64,000 bases of DNA from Candidatus Latescibacterota bacterium (GCA_965248435.1 OZ252100.1:192001-256000), one strand, 5' to 3'. Counted from the stretch's first letter, positions 35,346 through 44,120 are shown. Numbers and translations: made by a program. The notes: a model not told the origin generated them from the letters alone.

Positions 35346-36020
35346 CTACAATGAGAGCATTTCCAATTCCAGTTTGGCTGTCCTTGCGTGCGACGTGTTT
35401 GAGTAGGTCTTTGTGATTCTCTTCAGAAGAAGGGCCTGTTTCTCCAAATCTCCGGCCAACCCGGAACACCTGGCAGCGTGCCTGAGGGCCAGCGGCGCAT
35501 AGGGCGAAGATTGATATGCATCCGCATAGGCGACGTAACTGGTAATCGCACCTGAGTAATCTTCCCGTTCCTCAAGGCAGGCGGCCACACCTGAAGTAGC
35601 CCCATATCCCAACGCGCCCCCATCGCCATAGGCGGCCAGGTATGTTTCATAGGCGGCCTGTGCCTCGGGAAATCGACCCAGTTCGAAGTAAAGATTTCCG
35701 AGTATGATCGTGGCGTGACCAGCCTCGGGGTTTCCTTTGTATTCAGCCGCGATGCTCTCTGCCTGCAGGATCGCCTCCCCCGTCTTTCCCTGATAGAGCG
35801 CGATCCGGACTTCACCGAACGCATCTATGACTTCATTCGCCTGTGTTTCAGATCGCTGTTGGAACAACGTAGCAATCAGGATGATGACCAGAACCGCCGC
35901 AGCGACCGCCAGGAGTTTAACATACTCCTTTTGGATGTAGCCCCAGATCTTCAGGGCCCAGATCAAGAATTCATCCTGTTTGATCTCTTTTCTGGTCAGT
36001 CGCTTTCTTGCTCTTTGCAT
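35346..36020 (-). CDS. Membrane-anchored tetratricopeptide repeat protein (YfgM-like)
   Basis: LTRKEIKQDEF N-terminus, one TM helix, TPR helices (LGNLYFELGRFPEAQAAY). Confidence 0.85.
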   Translation of the reverse strand: MQRARKRLTRKEIKQDEFLIWALKIWGYIQKEYVKLLAVAAAVLVIILIATLFQQRSETQANEVIDAFGEVRIALYQGKTGEAILQAESIAAEYKGNPEAGHATIILGNLYFELGRFPEAQAAYETYLAAYGDGGALGYGATSGVAACLEEREDYSGAITSYVAYADAYQSSPYAPLALRHAARCSGLAGDLEKQALLLKRITKTYSNTSHARTAKLELEMLSL

Positions 36021-36168
36021 TTGTGTTGGCCCCTGATCATTGTGTGGCTTCCGCTAGAAGCGTTTATTTTTGTGCTAGTTAGGCTCAATATAGAAAAAAC
36101 CGACAGGGGTGGCAAGGTAAAACAGCCACGGGAAAAGAGTTTCTCTACTTGACGCCTTTCTGGGATAG

Positions 36169-36202
36169 AAAAACCCCCGGGCCATTCGGATAGCCCGGGG
36201 GG
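36169..36202 (-). terminator. Terminator downstream of flagellin 1
   Basis: CCCCCGGGC..GCCCGGGGG stem with an A-run giving a minus-strand U tract. Confidence 0.75.
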
Positions 36203-36230
36203 AAGCGACCAGCGGTCTTTGGAAAAGATG

Positions 36231-37427
36231 CTACTGAAGCAGTGTGAGCGCGTTCTGCGGGACTGCGTTTGCCTGCGCAAGCAATGCCGTGCTGGACTGC
36301 ACGAGAATTTGATTGCGTGTGAAATCTGAGACCTCTTCCGCGACATCCGTGTCCCGGATGATAGACTCAGAGGCCTGCATGTTCTCGATAGACACGTTGT
36401 TGTTTGCGATCGTGTGTTCAAGTCTGTTTTGCTGGGCCCCGAGGTCTCCCCTCGTCCGGGAGACGATGTCAATCGACAGGTCCAGTGCGGAAATGGCGGC
36501 GCGGGCCCCAAGCAATGTGCTTAAAGATTGACCACTCAGATTCAACGTTGTGCCGCTCGCACTCAGGTCGTTGATATTGAGCTCTACCCGATCTACGACC
36601 TGGGCGTCCGGGCCGACCTGGATACTCCCCCCGACACCTTGATCCACGACGAGTACGCGCCCGTCCAGGTCTCCGTCCCGGTAGCCGTCCGATGCCGGGT
36701 TTGCGCCGGCGGCGGCTCTTCGACCAGACAAGACCAGCTGAATTCCAAGCCTGTCGAAATTCGCGACAACCGACGAACCGGACGCAACCACCCCACCCAG
36801 CGCGTCATTATCCAGCGCCGTCCCGATGTCTATGGTTTGAGAGGCGATCCCGTTGCCGAGTGTAATTTCATTGTCCGCGGTACTGGAGTCGATGAAAACG
36901 TAGGTTCCGGCCTCTGCCGCGGTCAGATTGACATCGACAACCCCGGTTGTTGTAGACGCGGTCGCGCTAGAGACGTCAACATCTTTATTGACCGTGTTTC
37001 CAAAGCCTTTCAATATGGTGTTGTCATTGTAGCTCGTGGAACTCGCGATCCTGTCGATCTCCGTGACCAGCTGAACGAATTCCGCATTGATGGCGTCCCG
37101 GTTGTTGTCATTGACCGTCGAGGACGCAGACTGCACAGCCAGTGTCCGCATCCTGATCAGCATGTCGCTGACTTCGTTCAGCGCCCCCTCAGCCGTCTGG
37201 ATCAGGTTGGACCCCTGCTCTGCGTTCCGGGTCCCCTGGACCAGCCCGCCGATTTGTGCGCGGAAGCCCTCAGATACGGTGAGCCCGGAGGGGTCATCTG
37301 CACCGCGGTTGATACGAAGACCAGAAGATAGCCTCTCTAGATTCGTTCCCAGCCCACGGCTGTTGATACCGAGGTGTCGCTGGGAATTCATGGCCATAAT
37401 GTTGTGGTTTACGATCAACGCCGACAT
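36231..37427 (-). CDS. fliC: Flagellin (paralog 1)
   Basis: N-terminal ERLSSGLRINRGADDPSGL..QTAEGAL; C-terminal RGDLGAQQNRLEH..ESIIRDTDVAEE..ALLAQAN. Confidence 0.93.
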   Translation of the reverse strand: MSALIVNHNIMAMNSQRHLGINSRGLGTNLERLSSGLRINRGADDPSGLTVSEGFRAQIGGLVQGTRNAEQGSNLIQTAEGALNEVSDMLIRMRTLAVQSASSTVNDNNRDAINAEFVQLVTEIDRIASSTSYNDNTILKGFGNTVNKDVDVSSATASTTTGVVDVNLTAAEAGTYVFIDSSTADNEITLGNGIASQTIDIGTALDNDALGGVVASGSSVVANFDRLGIQLVLSGRRAAAGANPASDGYRDGDLDGRVLVVDQGVGGSIQVGPDAQVVDRVELNINDLSASGTTLNLSGQSLSTLLGARAAISALDLSIDIVSRTRGDLGAQQNRLEHTIANNNVSIENMQASESIIRDTDVAEEVSDFTRNQILVQSSTALLAQANAVPQNALTLLQ

Positions 37428-37520
37428 GCCCAACCTCCTTGTGGGGGGCCTTAGACTACCAGTGTGTGCATCCGTGCTCAGGTCGTCAGTGTATCAAGTG
37501 ATACCAGTTCGTTTGTTTTA

Positions 37521-37548
37521 CTATCGGTCTATCCCTCTTAGTCCTTTA
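37521..37548 (-). promoter_or_regulatory. Sigma-28 (FliA) promoter of flagellin 1
   Basis: TAAA-N16-ACCGATAG on the minus strand; the leader holds a GCA-CGGA-TGC CsrA-type hairpin (37468-37477). Confidence 0.75.
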
Positions 37549-37637
37549 GCAGAATTTTACTTTACGTCGGAGCTTGAATTGGCTACTCTTTTGGTATAGT
37601 CCTCGAATCTCCAAATTTATGATGGATCTAATATAAT

Positions 37638-38768
37638 ATGGCCGATTCAATGGATTTGCCGCTTGCAAAGGGAGCCTCCTTAGAAGAGATTCTGGATGAG
37701 TTCACCATAGAATCAGCCTCCGGGGATCTCTGGGCGGGCCTCTCTGGGGACCGGATCAAGTGCTACGCCTGCGGTCATCGATGCAACATACCCCCGGGAC
37801 GCAGGGGAATCTGCAAGGTTCGTTTCAACCGGGATGGCAAATTGCGGGTCCCGTGGGGATATGTTGGCGGTTTCCAATGTGACCCAACGGAGAAAAAGCC
37901 CTTTTTCCACGTCCATCCAGGGTCTAACACTTTGACTTTTGGTATGTTAGGCTGTGATCTGCACTGTTCTTATTGCCAGAATTGGCTGACTTCGCAGGCG
38001 CTCAGGGATTCCGCTGCCGTCTCTGCCCCACGTGAAATCTCTGCAGAAACGCTGATTTCAAAGGGGGTCCGGCTTGACCCCGTAATGGTGGCCAGCTCCT
38101 ACAACGAGCCGTTGATCACATCCGAATGGGCGGTTGAGGTCTTCAGGCACGCAAGAACGGCAGGCATCAAAACGGCCTTCGTGTCGAATGGAAACGCCAC
38201 GCCCGAGGTCCTGGACTACCTCAGACCCTGGACCGATTGCTACAAAATCGACCTCAAGACGATGTCGGATCGCAACTACAGAAAGCTGGGCGGTGTTCTT
38301 AAGAACGTGCTGGACACGATCAAGATGGTTTATGAGCGAGGGTTTTGGATGGAGATCGTAACCCTCCTCGTACCGGATTGGAACAGCTCTGAAGCGGAAT
38401 TGCGAGACGCGGCGCAGTTTCTCGGATCGATTTCTCCGGAGATTCCCTGGCACGTCACCGCCTTTCATAAGGATTACAAGATGACGGAGCCGGATAATGC
38501 ATCAGCCAAACTCCTTGTCCGGGCGGCCGAAATCGGGAAGGAGGCCGGTCTCAGCTATGTCTATGCGGGCAACCTTCCAGGGCAGGTTGGGGCATTTGAG
38601 AACACCTGGTGTCCGGGTTGCGATGGGCTTCTCGTCCAGCGAACCGGATTTTCGGTCGGACAGGTCAGGATCGGGGAGGATGGGTGCTGCCCGGACTGCG
38701 GCCGAATCACACCTGGGTTCTGGGGCAGGGTTGAGCGGAAGGGAGACGGATCTGTAAGGGCGCTTTGA
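37638..38768 (+). CDS. amrS: AmmeMemoRadiSam system radical SAM enzyme
   Basis: CYACGHRC..GICKVR, DPTEKKPFFH, GCDLHCSYCQNW, SYNEP, IPWHVTAFH..Y, YVYAGN..TWCPGC. Confidence 0.88.
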   Translation: MADSMDLPLAKGASLEEILDEFTIESASGDLWAGLSGDRIKCYACGHRCNIPPGRRGICKVRFNRDGKLRVPWGYVGGFQCDPTEKKPFFHVHPGSNTLTFGMLGCDLHCSYCQNWLTSQALRDSAAVSAPREISAETLISKGVRLDPVMVASSYNEPLITSEWAVEVFRHARTAGIKTAFVSNGNATPEVLDYLRPWTDCYKIDLKTMSDRNYRKLGGVLKNVLDTIKMVYERGFWMEIVTLLVPDWNSSEAELRDAAQFLGSISPEIPWHVTAFHKDYKMTEPDNASAKLLVRAAEIGKEAGLSYVYAGNLPGQVGAFENTWCPGCDGLLVQRTGFSVGQVRIGEDGCCPDCGRITPGFWGRVERKGDGSVRAL

Positions 38769-38792
38769 GCCAACACCTTCCATATAAAGAAT

Positions 38793-38837
38793 AAGGAAGG
38801 GGGCCTCATCATCACCAAGAGGCCCCCTTCCCTTTTT
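38793..38837. terminator. Terminator between convergent genes
   Basis: GGAAGGGGGCCTC..GAGGCCCCCTTCC followed by CTTTTT. Confidence 0.8.
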
Positions 38838-38854
38838 CCTGAGATGTTTCTTCT

Positions 38855-39682
38855 TTAGCCTGCAGATGTTTCATTCAATGCGTCGACCGCTCCCTGCAAG
38901 AAATCGTGTGCCTGAACGGCGAGTTCGTCGATTTCCTCTTCGCCCCTGGACTGGGTCCCATGAAGCCTTTCGACCATCACGGGACCTGAAAATCGGTTCA
39001 TTTTGAGAAGCCGGAGGATTCTGACGAAATCAACGCTCCCCTGGCCTGGAACAGGGAAGTCTTCCTCCCCCTTCTGGCCACGATGATCGGTGGCACACAG
39101 GGCCCCGAGATGTGGAAGCACGTGAAGGATGTCCACTTCGGGGCTCAGACCCTGTAAGAACCGCACCGTTCCTGGGTCATAGCAGGATTCCATCCAGCGA
39201 GAACCGACCTTGCTCAGCGTAGCCCTCAGAACGGGTCCGTGCGCCGTGTTCCCGGTGTGAGATTTGAGCAAGATCTTGACATTGTTCTCCTCCGCATAGG
39301 GAAGAATTTGAGACATCCGGCTAAGGAATTGTGCCTCCAGGGAGGCTGCTTCCTCCGGATCACTCTCTGTCGGGGTCCCATCCGTCAACAAAAGCCCAAT
39401 TTCCAGCAGCTGGGCCTGATCTATCCTTTTCTTGAAGTCTTCTACGCCTGTCTCCCCTGTCCAGTTCGCATACAAGATGACGGGCTTGAGCGAAAGGGCG
39501 TCCAGCTTGATCTGGATCTCCCTGGCGCCGTCCTGGCCTCCCCCCAAGGACTGAAACTCGTCCCCTTCGTTGCTAGAACCCAGACCCACGTATTCGAAGC
39601 CGGCTGACTTGATCCCATCAAGGGCGCGGTCGATCCCGAACGAAGCCCAGGGCGAGGTAAAACAACCGATTTTCCAATCCAT
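38855..39682 (-). CDS. Sugar phosphate isomerase/epimerase (AP endonuclease 2 TIM barrel) family protein
   Basis: ALDGIKSAGFEYV, YDPG, PGQGSVDF..L....FSGPVMVE; some metal ligands look substituted. Confidence 0.8.
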   Translation of the reverse strand: MDWKIGCFTSPWASFGIDRALDGIKSAGFEYVGLGSSNEGDEFQSLGGGQDGAREIQIKLDALSLKPVILYANWTGETGVEDFKKRIDQAQLLEIGLLLTDGTPTESDPEEAASLEAQFLSRMSQILPYAEENNVKILLKSHTGNTAHGPVLRATLSKVGSRWMESCYDPGTVRFLQGLSPEVDILHVLPHLGALCATDHRGQKGEEDFPVPGQGSVDFVRILRLLKMNRFSGPVMVERLHGTQSRGEEEIDELAVQAHDFLQGAVDALNETSAG

Positions 39683-39791
39683 CTCAAATGTTCCCACCTG
39701 AAAGGTGTCGTACTCTCAACAGAAGTGACGAAGTATAATCCGCCCGGGGGTAATTGTCAAGGAGCGCTTGGCAGAATTTTCGAGATAGTGT

Positions 39792-39819
39792 TCAAGAATC
39801 GCTCAAGCGCCGCCGATAT
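39792..39819 (+). promoter_or_regulatory. Sigma-28 promoter of flagellin 2
   Basis: TCAA-N16-GCCGATAT; CAC-CCGGAT-GTG CsrA-type motif at 39839-39850. Confidence 0.75.
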
Positions 39820-39899
39820 ACCTCGTATGCCCGGTAAACACCCGGATGTGGGAGTCCGGGTTAAGATCGGGAACACCACTTACTTGCCAGTTGTGACAC

Positions 39900-41090
39900 A
39901 TGCCAATCCGTATCAACAACAACATTCCTGCGATTAACTCGCAGCGAATCCTGAATATCACAAACCGGGATGTCAAACTCCGCGTGGAGCGACTCTCCTC
40001 CGGTTTGAGGGTCAACCGAGCGGCAGATGACGCAGCCGGTTTAAGCGTATCAGAAGGACTGCGTGGAGAAATCAGTGGATTTGCTCAGGGCATCAGAAAC
40101 TCTGAACAGGCCATTGACCTGGTGCAGACTGCCGAGGGCGCTCTCAGCGAGATGAGCGCCATCATACTCAGGATGCGTGAACTAGCGGTGCAATCTGCCT
40201 CGTCTACAGTGAATGACCAGAATCGGGAAGCGATCAACGCGGAATTTGCCCAGCTGGTAACCGAAATCGACCGGATCGCTCAGGTGACGAGCTACAACAA
40301 TACCGCTTTGCTGGCTGGGTTCGGAAATACGGTCGATGAAGCTACTTCTTCGGCGGTCACATCCAGTGCAACGACAGGCGTGGCCGATATTCAGATCAGT
40401 GGTGCGGGGGTTGGGAATTACACGTTCATAGATTCTTCTACGGGCGACAACGAAATCACATTGGGTAACGGGGTTGCATCTCAAACAATCGATGTCGGAC
40501 GAGCCCTGGACAACGATGGAGTTAGCGGCGTGGTGGCATCGGGCAGCGCAATCATCGCCAACTTCGACCGCCTCGGAATCCAGTTGACGTTAAGTGGGCA
40601 GCGCGCTGCTCAGGGTGTGACCCCGGCAACCGACGGATATCGCGATGGAGACCTGGATTCGGAAACCCTGGTTGTCAGCCAGGGCGCAGGCGGCGCCTTC
40701 CAGGTAGGGCCCGACGATACAGCGGTGCACCGGTTGCAGCTCAGCATATCAAGTATGCGTACATCTGACACGACTCTGAACCTGAGTGGATTATCGATAT
40801 CGTCACGCGCCTCTGCTCAAGGCGCCATCGGCTCGATCGATAACTCCATCAACCAGCTCAGCCGCACACGGGGTGACCTTGGGGCTATTCAGAATCGCCT
40901 CTCGACAAACATCAAGGCCAACGGGGTGATGCTGGAAAACGACCAGACTTCAGAATCGACGATTCGAGATGCAGACATTGCAGAGGAGGTTACTTCGTTC
41001 GCGCGAGGCCAGATTCTCATCCAGTCGGGTCTTGCAGCCTTCGCGCAGGCCAATATCACAGCCGCAACGGGTTTATCACTGCTCTCATAA
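39900..41090 (+). CDS. fliC: Flagellin (paralog 2)
   Basis: RINNNIPAINSQR, ERLSSGLRVNRAADDAAGL, RGDLGAIQNRL, ESTIRDADIAEE; central domain clearly homologous to paralog 1. Confidence 0.93.
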   Translation: MPIRINNNIPAINSQRILNITNRDVKLRVERLSSGLRVNRAADDAAGLSVSEGLRGEISGFAQGIRNSEQAIDLVQTAEGALSEMSAIILRMRELAVQSASSTVNDQNREAINAEFAQLVTEIDRIAQVTSYNNTALLAGFGNTVDEATSSAVTSSATTGVADIQISGAGVGNYTFIDSSTGDNEITLGNGVASQTIDVGRALDNDGVSGVVASGSAIIANFDRLGIQLTLSGQRAAQGVTPATDGYRDGDLDSETLVVSQGAGGAFQVGPDDTAVHRLQLSISSMRTSDTTLNLSGLSISSRASAQGAIGSIDNSINQLSRTRGDLGAIQNRLSTNIKANGVMLENDQTSESTIRDADIAEEVTSFARGQILIQSGLAAFAQANITAATGLSLLS

Positions 41091-41163
41091 GCGCGTTTTC
41101 GATTGTCGGTAGAGATGGTTGGAATCAGGGATGAAACGACCGCCATCTTTTGATTGCCGCCCG

Positions 41164-41188
41164 AGCCCCAAGGAAGGGGCTTTTTTAT
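41164..41188 (+). terminator. Terminator downstream of flagellin 2
   Basis: AGCCCC-AAGGAA-GGGGCT followed by TTTTT. Confidence 0.75.
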
Positions 41189-41265
41189 TGCCACTTGACA
41201 CACCTCGGACATGCTGCATATTCTTAGCAGGAGATGAGGGTCTTCAAATTCCGTGGAGGGCGGAC

Positions 41266-41490
41266 ATGGTCCAGCAAATACGTGTGAAGTTCGGAACAAC
41301 GGTAGAGGAGTTGAAGAAACAGATTCTGAATCTGTCCGAGCAGTGTGGTTGGGATAAATCGCGGGTCCGCTTCGTTATCGACATGGACTCGTGTACTGTA
41401 AAAGAAACCGCCTATGCCGTCTCAGACAGTTCTTCAGAGCTTCCTCTCCATCCGGGCGGGCCGGACGCTGTTCAAAGCCTGGCGTCCTGA
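41266..41490 (+). CDS. Small hypothetical protein
   Basis: GGAGG RBS, ATG 41266, 74 aa (MVQQIRVKFGTTVEELKKQI...); TTGACA upstream at 41195. Confidence 0.6.
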   Translation: MVQQIRVKFGTTVEELKKQILNLSEQCGWDKSRVRFVIDMDSCTVKETAYAVSDSSSELPLHPGGPDAVQSLAS

Positions 41491-41500
41491 ATCATTTTGC

Positions 41501-41527
41501 TAAACCGCCCTATCATTCTGCCGATAA
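41501..41527 (+). promoter_or_regulatory. Consensus sigma-28 promoter with no downstream ORF
   Basis: TAAA-N15-GCCGATAA, an exact FliA consensus. Confidence 0.8.
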
Positions 41528-41532
41528 AATAA

Positions 41533-41602
41533 CTGGCAAGTGTGTGTCGGTGTTTCTATTTCCCCGAGCGTCGATCTCCCAAGGATCGGCGCTTTATTTT
41601 TT
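41533..41602 (+). ncRNA. Candidate sigma-28-dependent sRNA antisense to the flagellin-2 5' UTR
   Basis: Lies between a sigma-28 promoter and the terminator AGCGTCGATC/GATCGGCGCT-TTATTTTTT; 5' part is complementary to 39869-39894. Confidence 0.6.
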
Positions 41603-41614
41603 CTCTCTGTCCGC

Positions 41615-42763
41615 CTACCAATTCGTGAAGGATCCGTCCTCCCGAAACCAGTGCGGGCCCTCCCAGAACTCGAAGGACTCCTTTGCCATATCCTCATTGA
41701 ACTCCACGCCGAGTCCGGGGCCTTCCGGCAAGGGATAAGAACTGCCTTTCAGCCGATGCTGCACCGGGAAGAAGTCATCACCGAACGTAAATTCGTGCTT
41801 CCGGTCTTCAAGCCAGGCGAAGTTGGCGACTGCTGCGCCAAAGTGGATGTGTGCTGCTGTGCTGATCGGTCCAAGGGGATTGTGCGGCATCATATCAATG
41901 TAATGGGCCTCGCTCCAGCCGGCGACCTTCATTCCCTCTGTAAATCCCCCGACGTTGCAGATGTCGATTCTCGCGAAATTGGTCAGCCCCTTCTCGATGT
42001 AGGGCAAGAAGGCCCATTTGCTCGAAAACTCCTCCCCTATCGCCATGGGCGTCCGGGTCATTTGACGCAACGTCGCATAGGCATCCGGAGTTTCGCAACG
42101 AATCGGTTCTTCCAGAAAGTCGAGTGTCCCCTCTGGCATCCGCTGACAGAATGAGGCGGCCTCGGCGACACTCAATCGGTGGTGATAGTCGATTCCGAGC
42201 ACAGGAGCCAACCCCACTTCCTCCCGGACGGCAGCCATCCATTCCGCGGATAGAGCGATGGACTCGCGGGGCTCGAAGCGGTTTTCGTTGTCCTGCGCTC
42301 CGGGGTGCGCAGGCATGAAGCGAATCACGCTCCAGCCTTCCTTGATCAGATCCACTGCCTCTTTGATCACTTCGGGGCCTTCAAGGGGTTTATCGGAGGT
42401 TACAAAGCATGGCACGGCGTGGCGCTGGGCACCGCCAAGCAGTTGATAGACTGGCACATCCAGCTTCCTGGCAACCAGGTCGTGCAGGGCGATGTCGATC
42501 GCGGAAATGGCTCCAGTCAGGATCCGGCCCCCTTCGAAATACTGGCCCCGGTAGAGTTCCTGCCAGAGGGCCCCTATGCGCATCGGATCCTTGCCAAGCA
42601 GAAATTCTCTGAAATGTTTGACTGCTCCGGCCACTGCCAGTTCTCTGCCAGACACCCCGGCTTCTCCCCACCCGTAGTAGCCTTCATCCGTTTCCACCTT
42701 CAAAACAAACTGATTTCTCTTACCCACCCATACGGGATATGACTTGATCTCTGTGATCTTCAT
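41615..42763 (-). CDS. Mandelate racemase/muconate lactonizing enzyme family (acid-sugar dehydratase-like)
   Basis: KVETDEGYYGWGE, AISAIDIALHD, DYHHRL, FLEEPI, AIGEEF, MPHNPLGP. Confidence 0.92.
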   Translation of the reverse strand: MKITEIKSYPVWVGKRNQFVLKVETDEGYYGWGEAGVSGRELAVAGAVKHFREFLLGKDPMRIGALWQELYRGQYFEGGRILTGAISAIDIALHDLVARKLDVPVYQLLGGAQRHAVPCFVTSDKPLEGPEVIKEAVDLIKEGWSVIRFMPAHPGAQDNENRFEPRESIALSAEWMAAVREEVGLAPVLGIDYHHRLSVAEAASFCQRMPEGTLDFLEEPIRCETPDAYATLRQMTRTPMAIGEEFSSKWAFLPYIEKGLTNFARIDICNVGGFTEGMKVAGWSEAHYIDMMPHNPLGPISTAAHIHFGAAVANFAWLEDRKHEFTFGDDFFPVQHRLKGSSYPLPEGPGLGVEFNEDMAKESFEFWEGPHWFREDGSFTNW

Positions 42764-42801
42764 TTCTCCTCCTCGCGTTCGCGTCTTTTAAGTTGACGAG
42801 C

Positions 42802-43944
42802 TCACCAGTTTGTGTATGTGCCATCCCGCCGATGCCAGTGAGTGAGCTCCCAGAACTCGTAGGATTGTTTCTGGGCCTCCTCTTCGTTGAATTCTACACC
42901 GAGCCCGGCCCCCTTGGGCAACGGGAATTCCGTTCCTGCCAGCTCGGGCTGGACGGGAAAGAGTTTACGATCGAATTTGCGAGCGAAGGTCTCGAGCCAG
43001 GCAAAGTTGGGGACAGCGGCGCCAAAGTGGATGCCCGCAGCTGTGCTGATCGGTCCCAGCGGGTTGTGGGGCATCATATTTATGTAGTGGGCTTCGCTCC
43101 ATCCGGCCACCTTCATCGCCTCCGTAAATCCTCCGACGTTGCAGATGTCTACCCTTGCGAAGTTTGTCAAACCTTTCTCGATGTAGGGTAAGAAAGCCCA
43201 TTTGCTCGAAAACTCCTCCCCTATCGCCATTGGAAGCTCGGTCATTTGACGCAAGGCAGCGTAGGCATCTGGGGTCTCACAACGGATCGGCTCTTCAAGA
43301 AAGTCTATCGTCCCGGCGGGGAGTCGCTGACAGAAGGAGGCGGCCTCGGCAACATTCAACCGATGGTGGTAGTCGATTCCAAGCACGACGGACGGCCCGA
43401 TCTCCTCACGAACCGCCACAGCCCACTCCGCAATCAGGGCGATCGATTCCCTGGGCTCGAACAGTCCGCTGCCCTCCACGTAGTCCCGGGGCTCCGTGGT
43501 GTATCGGATGATGTTCCACCCCTCCTGGATGAGACGTTTGGTATCGCTTACTGCTTCTGGACCATTCAGAGGCTTCGACGTGATGAAGCAAGGCACAGAA
43601 TCACGCTGGGCTCCACCCAGAAGTTGGTAAACCGGAACATCCAATTTCTTCGCGACAAGGTCGTGAAGCGCAATATCGATCGCAGAAATGGCCCCAGTCA
43701 GGATTCGGCCGCCCTCGAAGTACTGGCCCCGGTATAACTCCTGACAGAGGGCCCCTATGCGCATCGGATCCTTCCCGATGAGAAATTCTCTGAAGTGCTT
43801 GACGGCGCCCACTACACCCAGCTCACGGCTGCATACACCGGCCTCGCCCCAGCCATAATATCCCTCATCCGTCTCCACTTTCAGGACAAGCTGGTTCTGG
43901 TCGCCAACGCGAACGGGATAGGTCTTCACGTCCGTAATTTTCAT
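42802..43944 (-). CDS. Mandelate racemase/muconate lactonizing enzyme family, tandem paralog
   Basis: Same motifs, with long stretches identical to 41615-42763. Confidence 0.92.
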   Translation of the reverse strand: MKITDVKTYPVRVGDQNQLVLKVETDEGYYGWGEAGVCSRELGVVGAVKHFREFLIGKDPMRIGALCQELYRGQYFEGGRILTGAISAIDIALHDLVAKKLDVPVYQLLGGAQRDSVPCFITSKPLNGPEAVSDTKRLIQEGWNIIRYTTEPRDYVEGSGLFEPRESIALIAEWAVAVREEIGPSVVLGIDYHHRLNVAEAASFCQRLPAGTIDFLEEPIRCETPDAYAALRQMTELPMAIGEEFSSKWAFLPYIEKGLTNFARVDICNVGGFTEAMKVAGWSEAHYINMMPHNPLGPISTAAGIHFGAAVPNFAWLETFARKFDRKLFPVQPELAGTEFPLPKGAGLGVEFNEEEAQKQSYEFWELTHWHRRDGTYTNW

Positions 43945-44120
43945 GTCTCCCCCAATTTCTGGCCTTTCGGTTTGTCAGAAGAATAACACGGGGGGGCCGG
44001 GAACAGAAATGGAATCATCTTGCCCTTGGTGCAAGGCTCGTACACTCAAAAATAGAAAAAGAGCCACATCATTCTCGATGTGGCCCGGTCCTGGAGAGAT
44101 GGGATCGTGAATCTCCCCCT

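Follow-up and report, generated by a model that had tools for sequence, protein, structure and literature searches.

Flagellin translation initiation is the step at which the CsrA-FliW system of Bacillus and Campylobacter acts, through a repressor protein with GGA motifs as its binding sites. Among small RNAs (sRNAs), FliX originates from the flagellin (fliC) locus, and those of the MicL and DapZ type are embedded in a 3' UTR, have their own internal promoter, and share a terminator with the upstream mRNA. According to Melamed et al. 2023 (PMC10578931), sigma-28 controls the expression of FliX, MotR, UhpU, and FlgO in Escherichia coli, and flagellin levels and the number of flagella respond to several of these RNAs; they are presented there as UTR-derived RNAs in an Hfq setting. 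In Campylobacter jejuni, CJnc170 (FlmR) is reported to be FliA-dependent and, when overexpressed, to reduce filament length and motility (Konig et al. 2024, PMC11187230); this species is also described as using CsrA-FliW (PMC4894983). As for FlaX of Vibrio cholerae, the account of Ghandour et al. 2024 (PMC11879080) places it directly downstream of a flagellin gene and gives a length of ~265 nt, with an RNA that is cut by RNase E from the flaA 3' UTR, has no promoter of its own, is stabilised by ProQ, and targets flaB. FlaX pairs with flagellin mRNA, sequesters the standby site, prevents 30S binding, and alters filament composition, according to the same account.

The window analysed here is a stretch of 64,000 nucleotides from a Latescibacterota genome (GCA_965248435.1 OZ252100.1:192001-256000). 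Judged from its sequence, the unit at 41501-41602 encodes a short non-coding RNA, has a sigma-28 promoter, and sits beside one flagellin gene; it is present in several uncultured marine Latescibacterota. The evidence tips the balance slightly towards a FliA-driven sRNA of ~65-70 nt, a new family in flagellated members of one order, which would pair with the leader of the neighbouring flagellin-2 gene and repress that flagellin.

The small RNA unit and its relatives

The unit consists of the following features.

41501-41527, plus strand: sigma-28 (FliA) type promoter, with the -35 box TAAA at 41501-04, a 15-nt spacer, and the -10 box GCCGATAA at 41520-27
41534-41602, plus strand: predicted primary sRNA, ~69 nt, its 5' end placed by the onset of conservation at ~41534
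41534-41556, plus strand: conserved 5' core and putative seed, UGGCAAGUGUGUGUCGGUGUUUC, nearly invariant in alignments
41566-41602, plus strand: intrinsic terminator, in which a U-run comes after a stem of 12 pairs (41566-41594)

The first-pass annotation of this DNA had reported an exact FliA consensus, TAAA-N15-GCCGATAA, which is indeed present without a mismatch at 41501-41527, and all of its sequence statements on promoter, terminator, and pairing blocks check out. Within the window this is the sole match even when one mismatch is allowed (0.11 expected; at least one match in 10 of 100 shuffles), and the 5.67-Mb genome has two exact copies of the motif, both strands counted. The genome has one FliA gene above the curated cut-off (C1:3523553-3524224; TIGR02479, 281.8 bits vs 189.6), and looser TAAA-N14-16-GCCGATA sites stand 167-210 nt ahead of three other flagellin genes. 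The sRNA promoter is thus a good candidate for FliA dependence: RNA polymerase with FliA (sigma-28) would start the sRNA near 41534, and the terminator at 41566-41602 would end it.

Twelve FliA/WhiG-like sigma paralogues of ~290-335 aa were also noted in this genome at 84-142 bits, below the cut-off (e.g., C1:4401023-4401661 and C1:1306359-1306967). Separately, sigma-28-type motifs occur 188-242 nt before two genes, C1:1730612 and C1:1738445, the products of which look, from their translations, like a methyltransferase and a methyltransferase-glycosyltransferase fusion.

Since conservation sets in at ~41534, the transcription start is probably near this position, and bases 41529-33, the first of those proposed earlier to pair with flagellin-2, probably lie upstream of it, as had been suspected at the time. 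The fold of 41534-41602 has an energy of -20.9 kcal/mol (z -2.79; equally good in 1 of 200 shuffles), in which the core at 41534-41556 forms just a weak 5-pair hairpin. The U-tailed terminator expected ~70 nt past the promoter was found as the stem at 41566-41594 with its T-run. Its stem covaries among homologues: pairing holds in 99.1% of cells, double-sided changes occur in 6 of 11 pairs, and none of 500 shuffles reaches the score. Covariance model, alignment, and stem covariation agree with the earlier view of promoter and terminator as one conserved small non-coding unit. The accompanying statement that the stretch holds no ORF, however, needs correction, as mechanical ORFs do overlap it; a coding role is nevertheless disfavoured, because a 2-nt GT insertion/deletion occurs inside the core among homologues. 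Rfam reports nothing for 36000-44000 on both strands at E up to 1.

As for distribution, 5 of 40 relatives have a BLAST match to the region. A strict pattern search through one genome per species (185,579 species) returned 9 loci, consisting of 5 true homologues, all labelled Latescibacteria/Latescibacterota, and 4 chance matches. The first covariance model gives 8 strong matches among 151 genomes of the phylum, and the second gives 10 among 132 genomes of the class, at 71-104 bits, with the next best at no more than 30.5 bits. These weaker matches are mostly terminators alone or other small sigma-28 units and were not counted as members.

All 10 carriers belong to two families of one Latescibacterota order, and all have flagellin genes. 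Among the 151 genomes sampled from the phylum, 67 are flagellin-positive and include all 8 strong matches, while the 84 flagellin-less ones have none; weak matches at 22-24 bits (E about 0.009) occur in two of the latter, G045 and G062. No strong match was found in the 56 flagellated genomes of this sample that lie outside the order. Within the order, the combined searches place the sRNA in 10 of 14 flagellated genomes, with no strong covariance-model match in the other four (G008, G036, G091, and G123).

Nine of the 10 homologues retain the two promoter boxes, and the stretch between the -10 box and ~41533 varies. The exception, G005, is missing ~10 nt of the promoter spacer, which puts the boxes out of register, with core and terminator intact; its assembly is fragmented and 80% complete. 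From ~41534 onwards there is hardly any variation in the 5' core, GGCAAGUGUGUGU(GU)YGGUG, which is followed by a UCCCC patch.

Small units of a different kind were also seen at G036:C33:10358-10459 (L024 1501-1602, minus strand) and G128:C564 (L060 298-393), with an exact or near-exact sigma-28 promoter, a similar terminator (GCGTCG...), and a different body. The G036 unit has a small hairpin with a GGA in its loop and adjoins no flagellin gene. By their layout these may be further sigma-28 sRNAs.

Pairing with the flagellin-2 leader

The flagellin-type genes of this genome and the elements around the predicted target are as follows.

39792-39819, plus strand: sigma-28-like promoter of flagellin-2 (TCAA, N16, GCCGATAT), with similar boxes before orthologues
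39869-39890, plus strand: predicted site of sRNA pairing, at -31 to -10 of the flagellin-2 leader when counted from the ATG (39900)
39900-41090, plus strand: flagellin-2, "type A" (N-terminus MPIRINNN...), predicted target; Pfam Flagellin_N and Flagellin_C
36231-37427, minus strand: flagellin-1, "type B" (MSALIVNHN...), assigned by Pfam, with a CAAGGAGG Shine-Dalgarno; unsupported as a target
C1 1554273-1555454, 1556904-1557323, 1650552-1651742, 3502438-3502824, and 5500103-5501293: five further flagellin-type genes, outside the window

The circuit proposed at first, in which an sRNA sets the ratio of two flagellins, turns out to be too simple, as there are seven flagellin-type genes and the sRNA matches one of them. 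Only the flagellin-2 leader is complementary to it (z -2.9), the other six having z from -0.5 to +0.5. These six flagellins have long leaders with the CAAGGAGG Shine-Dalgarno and AGGA motifs in small hairpins that resemble CsrA sites. The flagellin-2 leader has neither an AGGA nor a Shine-Dalgarno motif, and the Shine-Dalgarno sequences of its orthologues are weak. A second pairing, AGTGTGTGT with GCACACACT in the flagellin-1 leader, had also been suggested; the sequence exists on the minus strand at 37461-69, but the match is at chance level (z -0.2 to -0.3, rank 1,839 of 4,934). For the type-B flagellins of the sRNA loci, z equals -0.3, 0.0, -2.1, -0.8, -1.2, -2.6, and +0.4. Nor was a CsrA or FliW gene found behind the hairpin of the flagellin-1 leader that had been ascribed to CsrA: CsrA (PF02599, TIGR00202) and FliW (PF02623) have no match in this 97.5%-complete genome, and the same applies to the chaperones Hfq (PF17209) and ProQ (PF04352), with control genomes positive in all cases.

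Both blocks of the proposed flagellin-2 pairing were reproduced, the first (41529-42 with 39881-94) with 11 consecutive Watson-Crick pairs and flanking pairs, the second (41549-57 with 39869-77) with 7 Watson-Crick and 2 G-U pairs. The predicted site and sRNA nt 1-23 form 17 Watson-Crick and 2 G-U pairs, with a core of -24.3 kcal/mol. For 41534-41565 and the leader, the RNAduplex energy is -30.6 kcal/mol (z -2.9; 3 of 200 leader shuffles as good). In a genome-wide ranking, the kind of check that had been suggested, flagellin-2 takes place 53 among 4,934 crude ORF start regions when the full 5' part is used, 193 with the core only, and 213 among the 10,860 genome windows that hold a 7-mer seed, ranks to be read with the caveat that GU-rich RNA pairs promiscuously. 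Within this genome alone, the pairing is above chance and good, not decisive. The best other duplex site genome-wide, C1:2088014, is leader-like but lies in no visible start region and was treated as a chance match.

The type-A flagellin leader is readable in six genomes (G000, G004, G038, G126, G128, and G144), and in all six it is complementary to the sRNA in the same register. Here sRNA nt 1-22 pair with the leader at about -10 to -38 (-52 in one genome), with UGGC:GCCA at about -19 to -13, the GU run against ACACAC, and CGGUGUU:AACACC(G) at about -36 to -28. The number of Watson-Crick pairs per duplex ranges from 14 to 19 and that of G-U pairs from 0 to 3, and the end of the site falls between -10 and -16. 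The z values of the cognate pairs against leader shuffles are -3.6, -1.6, -1.8, -4.3, -4.2, and -2.6, with the weak duplexes belonging to G126 (-1.6) and G128 (-1.8), where 19 of 300 shuffles are as good in each. The six genomes are kin and not independent samples; their leader sites differ considerably in sequence yet stay complementary. Compensatory changes in related genomes, which the first-pass annotation had listed as a check, amount to one double-sided pair change, UGGC:GCCA to UGGU:ACCA in G126. Cognate sRNA-leader energies hardly differ from non-cognate ones (-31.6 vs -29.2 kcal/mol), and the case for co-evolution therefore rests on this single double change.

A real sigma-28-dependent sRNA might, however, have its main targets elsewhere, with the leader match being a relic of its origin (e.g., an inverted copy of the leader) or a minor target. 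In this genome 52 crude ORF start regions and 212 seeded windows outscore flagellin-2, which suits such an account, as do the weak z values of G126 and G128. The same is true of G088, which has a perfect sRNA and an intact 74-aa ORF, whereas what remains of the adjoining flagellin is truncated at the N-terminus and has no leader (G088:C13, L031 4875-5650; a 195-aa ORF without the N-terminal domain); since the sRNA persists there although the flagellin beside it is not intact, it may have another target or a further one. Main targets elsewhere nevertheless seem unlikely, given a single register maintained in all six genomes despite diverged leader sequences and the fact that just one of seven flagellin leaders matches, namely the syntenic one. 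In addition, none of the 12 best-scoring other ORFs is recognisably flagellar according to its translation.

If flagellin-2 is the target, the unstructured GU-rich 5' end of the sRNA (UGGCAAGUGUGUGUCGGUGU) would base-pair with the leader at -31 to -10, and the duplex would cover the ribosome loading/standby region, so that translation of this one flagellin paralogue is most likely lowered. The site is unpaired to about 0.43-0.70 in the six free leaders (~0.59 in this genome). Blocking it leaves the start region unopened, with changes from -0.04 to +0.09 in the six leaders, which favours occlusion, i.e., repression, over activation and speaks against an anti-antisense mechanism, in which the start region would be freed. 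We infer that the two RNAs pair in vivo and that the outcome is repression.

The opposite effect, in which the sRNA activates flagellin-2 by stabilising the mRNA or helping ribosomes to load and thereby closes a coherent feed-forward loop, is rather improbable. The gene has no Shine-Dalgarno and its orthologues have weak ones, so they may need help, and the site stops upstream of the Shine-Dalgarno position, at -13 to -16, in most genomes. In this genome, however, the duplex extends to -10, the start region is not consistently freed across the six leaders, and FlaX is described as blocking 30S binding at a standby site (PMC11879080).

Flagellin-2 and the sRNA appear to share one sigma factor, and with repression as the preferred reading, sigma-28-type promoters on the two would make an incoherent feed-forward loop. 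The flagellin-2 promoter is itself only a probable sigma-28 promoter, because it is 2 positions off the consensus. Such a loop would cap or delay the share of flagellin-2 against that of the other six, whose leaders have a strong Shine-Dalgarno and no site.

Neighbouring genes and transcript evidence

Two further features lie between flagellin-2 and the sRNA.

41163-41182, plus strand: terminator of flagellin-2 itself, which divides this gene from the downstream units; in G126 this hairpin is likewise found after the orthologue
41195-41490, plus strand: 74-aa ORF unit, with the ORF at 41266-41490, a sigma-70-like TTGACA promoter at 41195-41224, and a GGAGG Shine-Dalgarno

The order type-A flagellin, terminator, (74-aa ORF), sRNA recurs in all 9 other sRNA loci fetched with flanks, and the N-terminus of the upstream type-A flagellins reads MP(L/I/F)R(I/V/L)N. 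The G005 homologue starts at a contig start, its upstream gene is unreadable, and it stands outside this count. In G126 the 74-aa ORF is absent, and promoter, core, and terminator stand directly after the flagellin terminator. On the other side, the gene downstream of the sRNA codes for a mandelate-racemase-type enzyme and is convergent, so the sRNA unit leads into no gene.

Between the divergent flagellin-1 and flagellin-2 genes (37638-39697), this genome alone has a radical-SAM gene (plus strand) and a xylose-isomerase-like TIM-barrel gene (minus strand), which could be flagellin-modification genes.

The 74-aa ORF has no match in Pfam, NCBIfam, or Atlas, and its AlphaFold model, with a pLDDT of 56.2, is too poor for a fold search. 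One copy each is present in 9 of the 10 sRNA genomes; within the class, the ORF also occurs in G154, where it stands alone, with no flagellin or sRNA nearby and no sRNA-like tail. One might imagine that the sRNA and the 74-aa protein form a flagellin checkpoint of a new type, with the protein as an RNA chaperone or a FliW-like partner switch that senses flagellin export, and the sRNA replacing CsrA on the one flagellin without a Shine-Dalgarno; such a scheme is speculative and quite improbable.

Regarding transcripts, a single RNA-library contig falls on the 2-kb stretch, a 151-nt marine metatranscriptome contig that spans 41489-41632 and overlies the sRNA. It overshoots both predicted ends, by 45 nt before the start and by 30 nt beyond the U-run, and may thus stem from transcription that continues out of the 74-aa ORF or from carry-over of DNA into the library; neither start, end, nor strand of the sRNA follows from it. 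Metagenome contigs of other organisms match only at 41515-41608 and in two conserved flagellin segments. Among sequencing runs, four from one sample contain the entire stretch and may have been used for the assembly, and small shares in many marine runs were given no weight. Production of the sRNA from its sigma-28 promoter would fit the conserved boxes.

Since no terminator was called between the stop of the 74-aa ORF (41490) and the sRNA hairpin (41566), mRNA of this ORF should hold the sRNA sequence in its 3' UTR. That the stretch is nothing but this 3' UTR and its terminator, with a coincidental sigma-28 motif, agrees with the missing terminator and with an RNA-library contig that begins ahead of the proposed start, but is very improbable in view of boxes conserved amid variable neighbouring bases, an sRNA stretch better conserved than the ORF and matched on its own by contigs of other organisms, the G126 unit that does without the ORF, and the G154 ORF that does without the tail.

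Comparison with known systems

The expectation that this sRNA would be undescribed in its lineage held: besides the negative Rfam result, no relevant paper on sRNA in Latescibacter* was found, and the literature retrieved on Latescibacterota (formerly WS3, a candidate phylum), including that on flagella, describes no regulatory RNA. The RNA family thus appears to be new, whereas the kind of regulator, as in FlaX and FliX, is already known. Sequence alone suffices to recognise it, as the sigma-28 promoter is of textbook form, the terminator covaries, and the conserved seed matches one flagellin leader, and it could join RNA databases. One of seven flagellin paralogues would be singled out for special regulation, which offers a handle on why so many flagellins are kept.

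Similarly to FlaX as described in PMC11879080, the sRNA lies downstream of a flagellin gene and would follow the same regulatory logic. The Latescibacterota RNA, however, has a predicted length of ~69 nt and its own sigma-28 promoter after the flagellin terminator, in a genome where no ProQ was found, and its predicted target is the flagellin just upstream and not another flagellin such as flaB. The likeness to FlaX is thus one of logic, with no sequence relationship shown and no Rfam match. In comparison with the E. coli sigma-28 sRNAs as presented in PMC10578931, the unit would be free-standing, has a putative seed directed at a leader, and belongs to a genome without a detected Hfq. With CJnc170, as reported in PMC11187230, it would share the role of a FliA-dependent, late-class brake on the filament; lineage and sequence differ. 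C. jejuni, according to PMC4894983, also has CsrA-FliW, unlike this genome, where that system was not detected. CsrA-FliW and the predicted sRNA would act at the same step, flagellin translation initiation at the leader, the difference being an RNA in place of a protein repressor. As for the MicL and DapZ type, the locus resembles it in that no terminator separates the 74-aa ORF from 41566, but the G126 unit stands alone. Taken with the absence of detected Hfq, ProQ, and CsrA here, these comparisons suggest that the arrangement in which the flagellar sigma factor makes an sRNA that trims a flagellin arose independently of the proteobacterial FlaX, FliX, and CJnc170.
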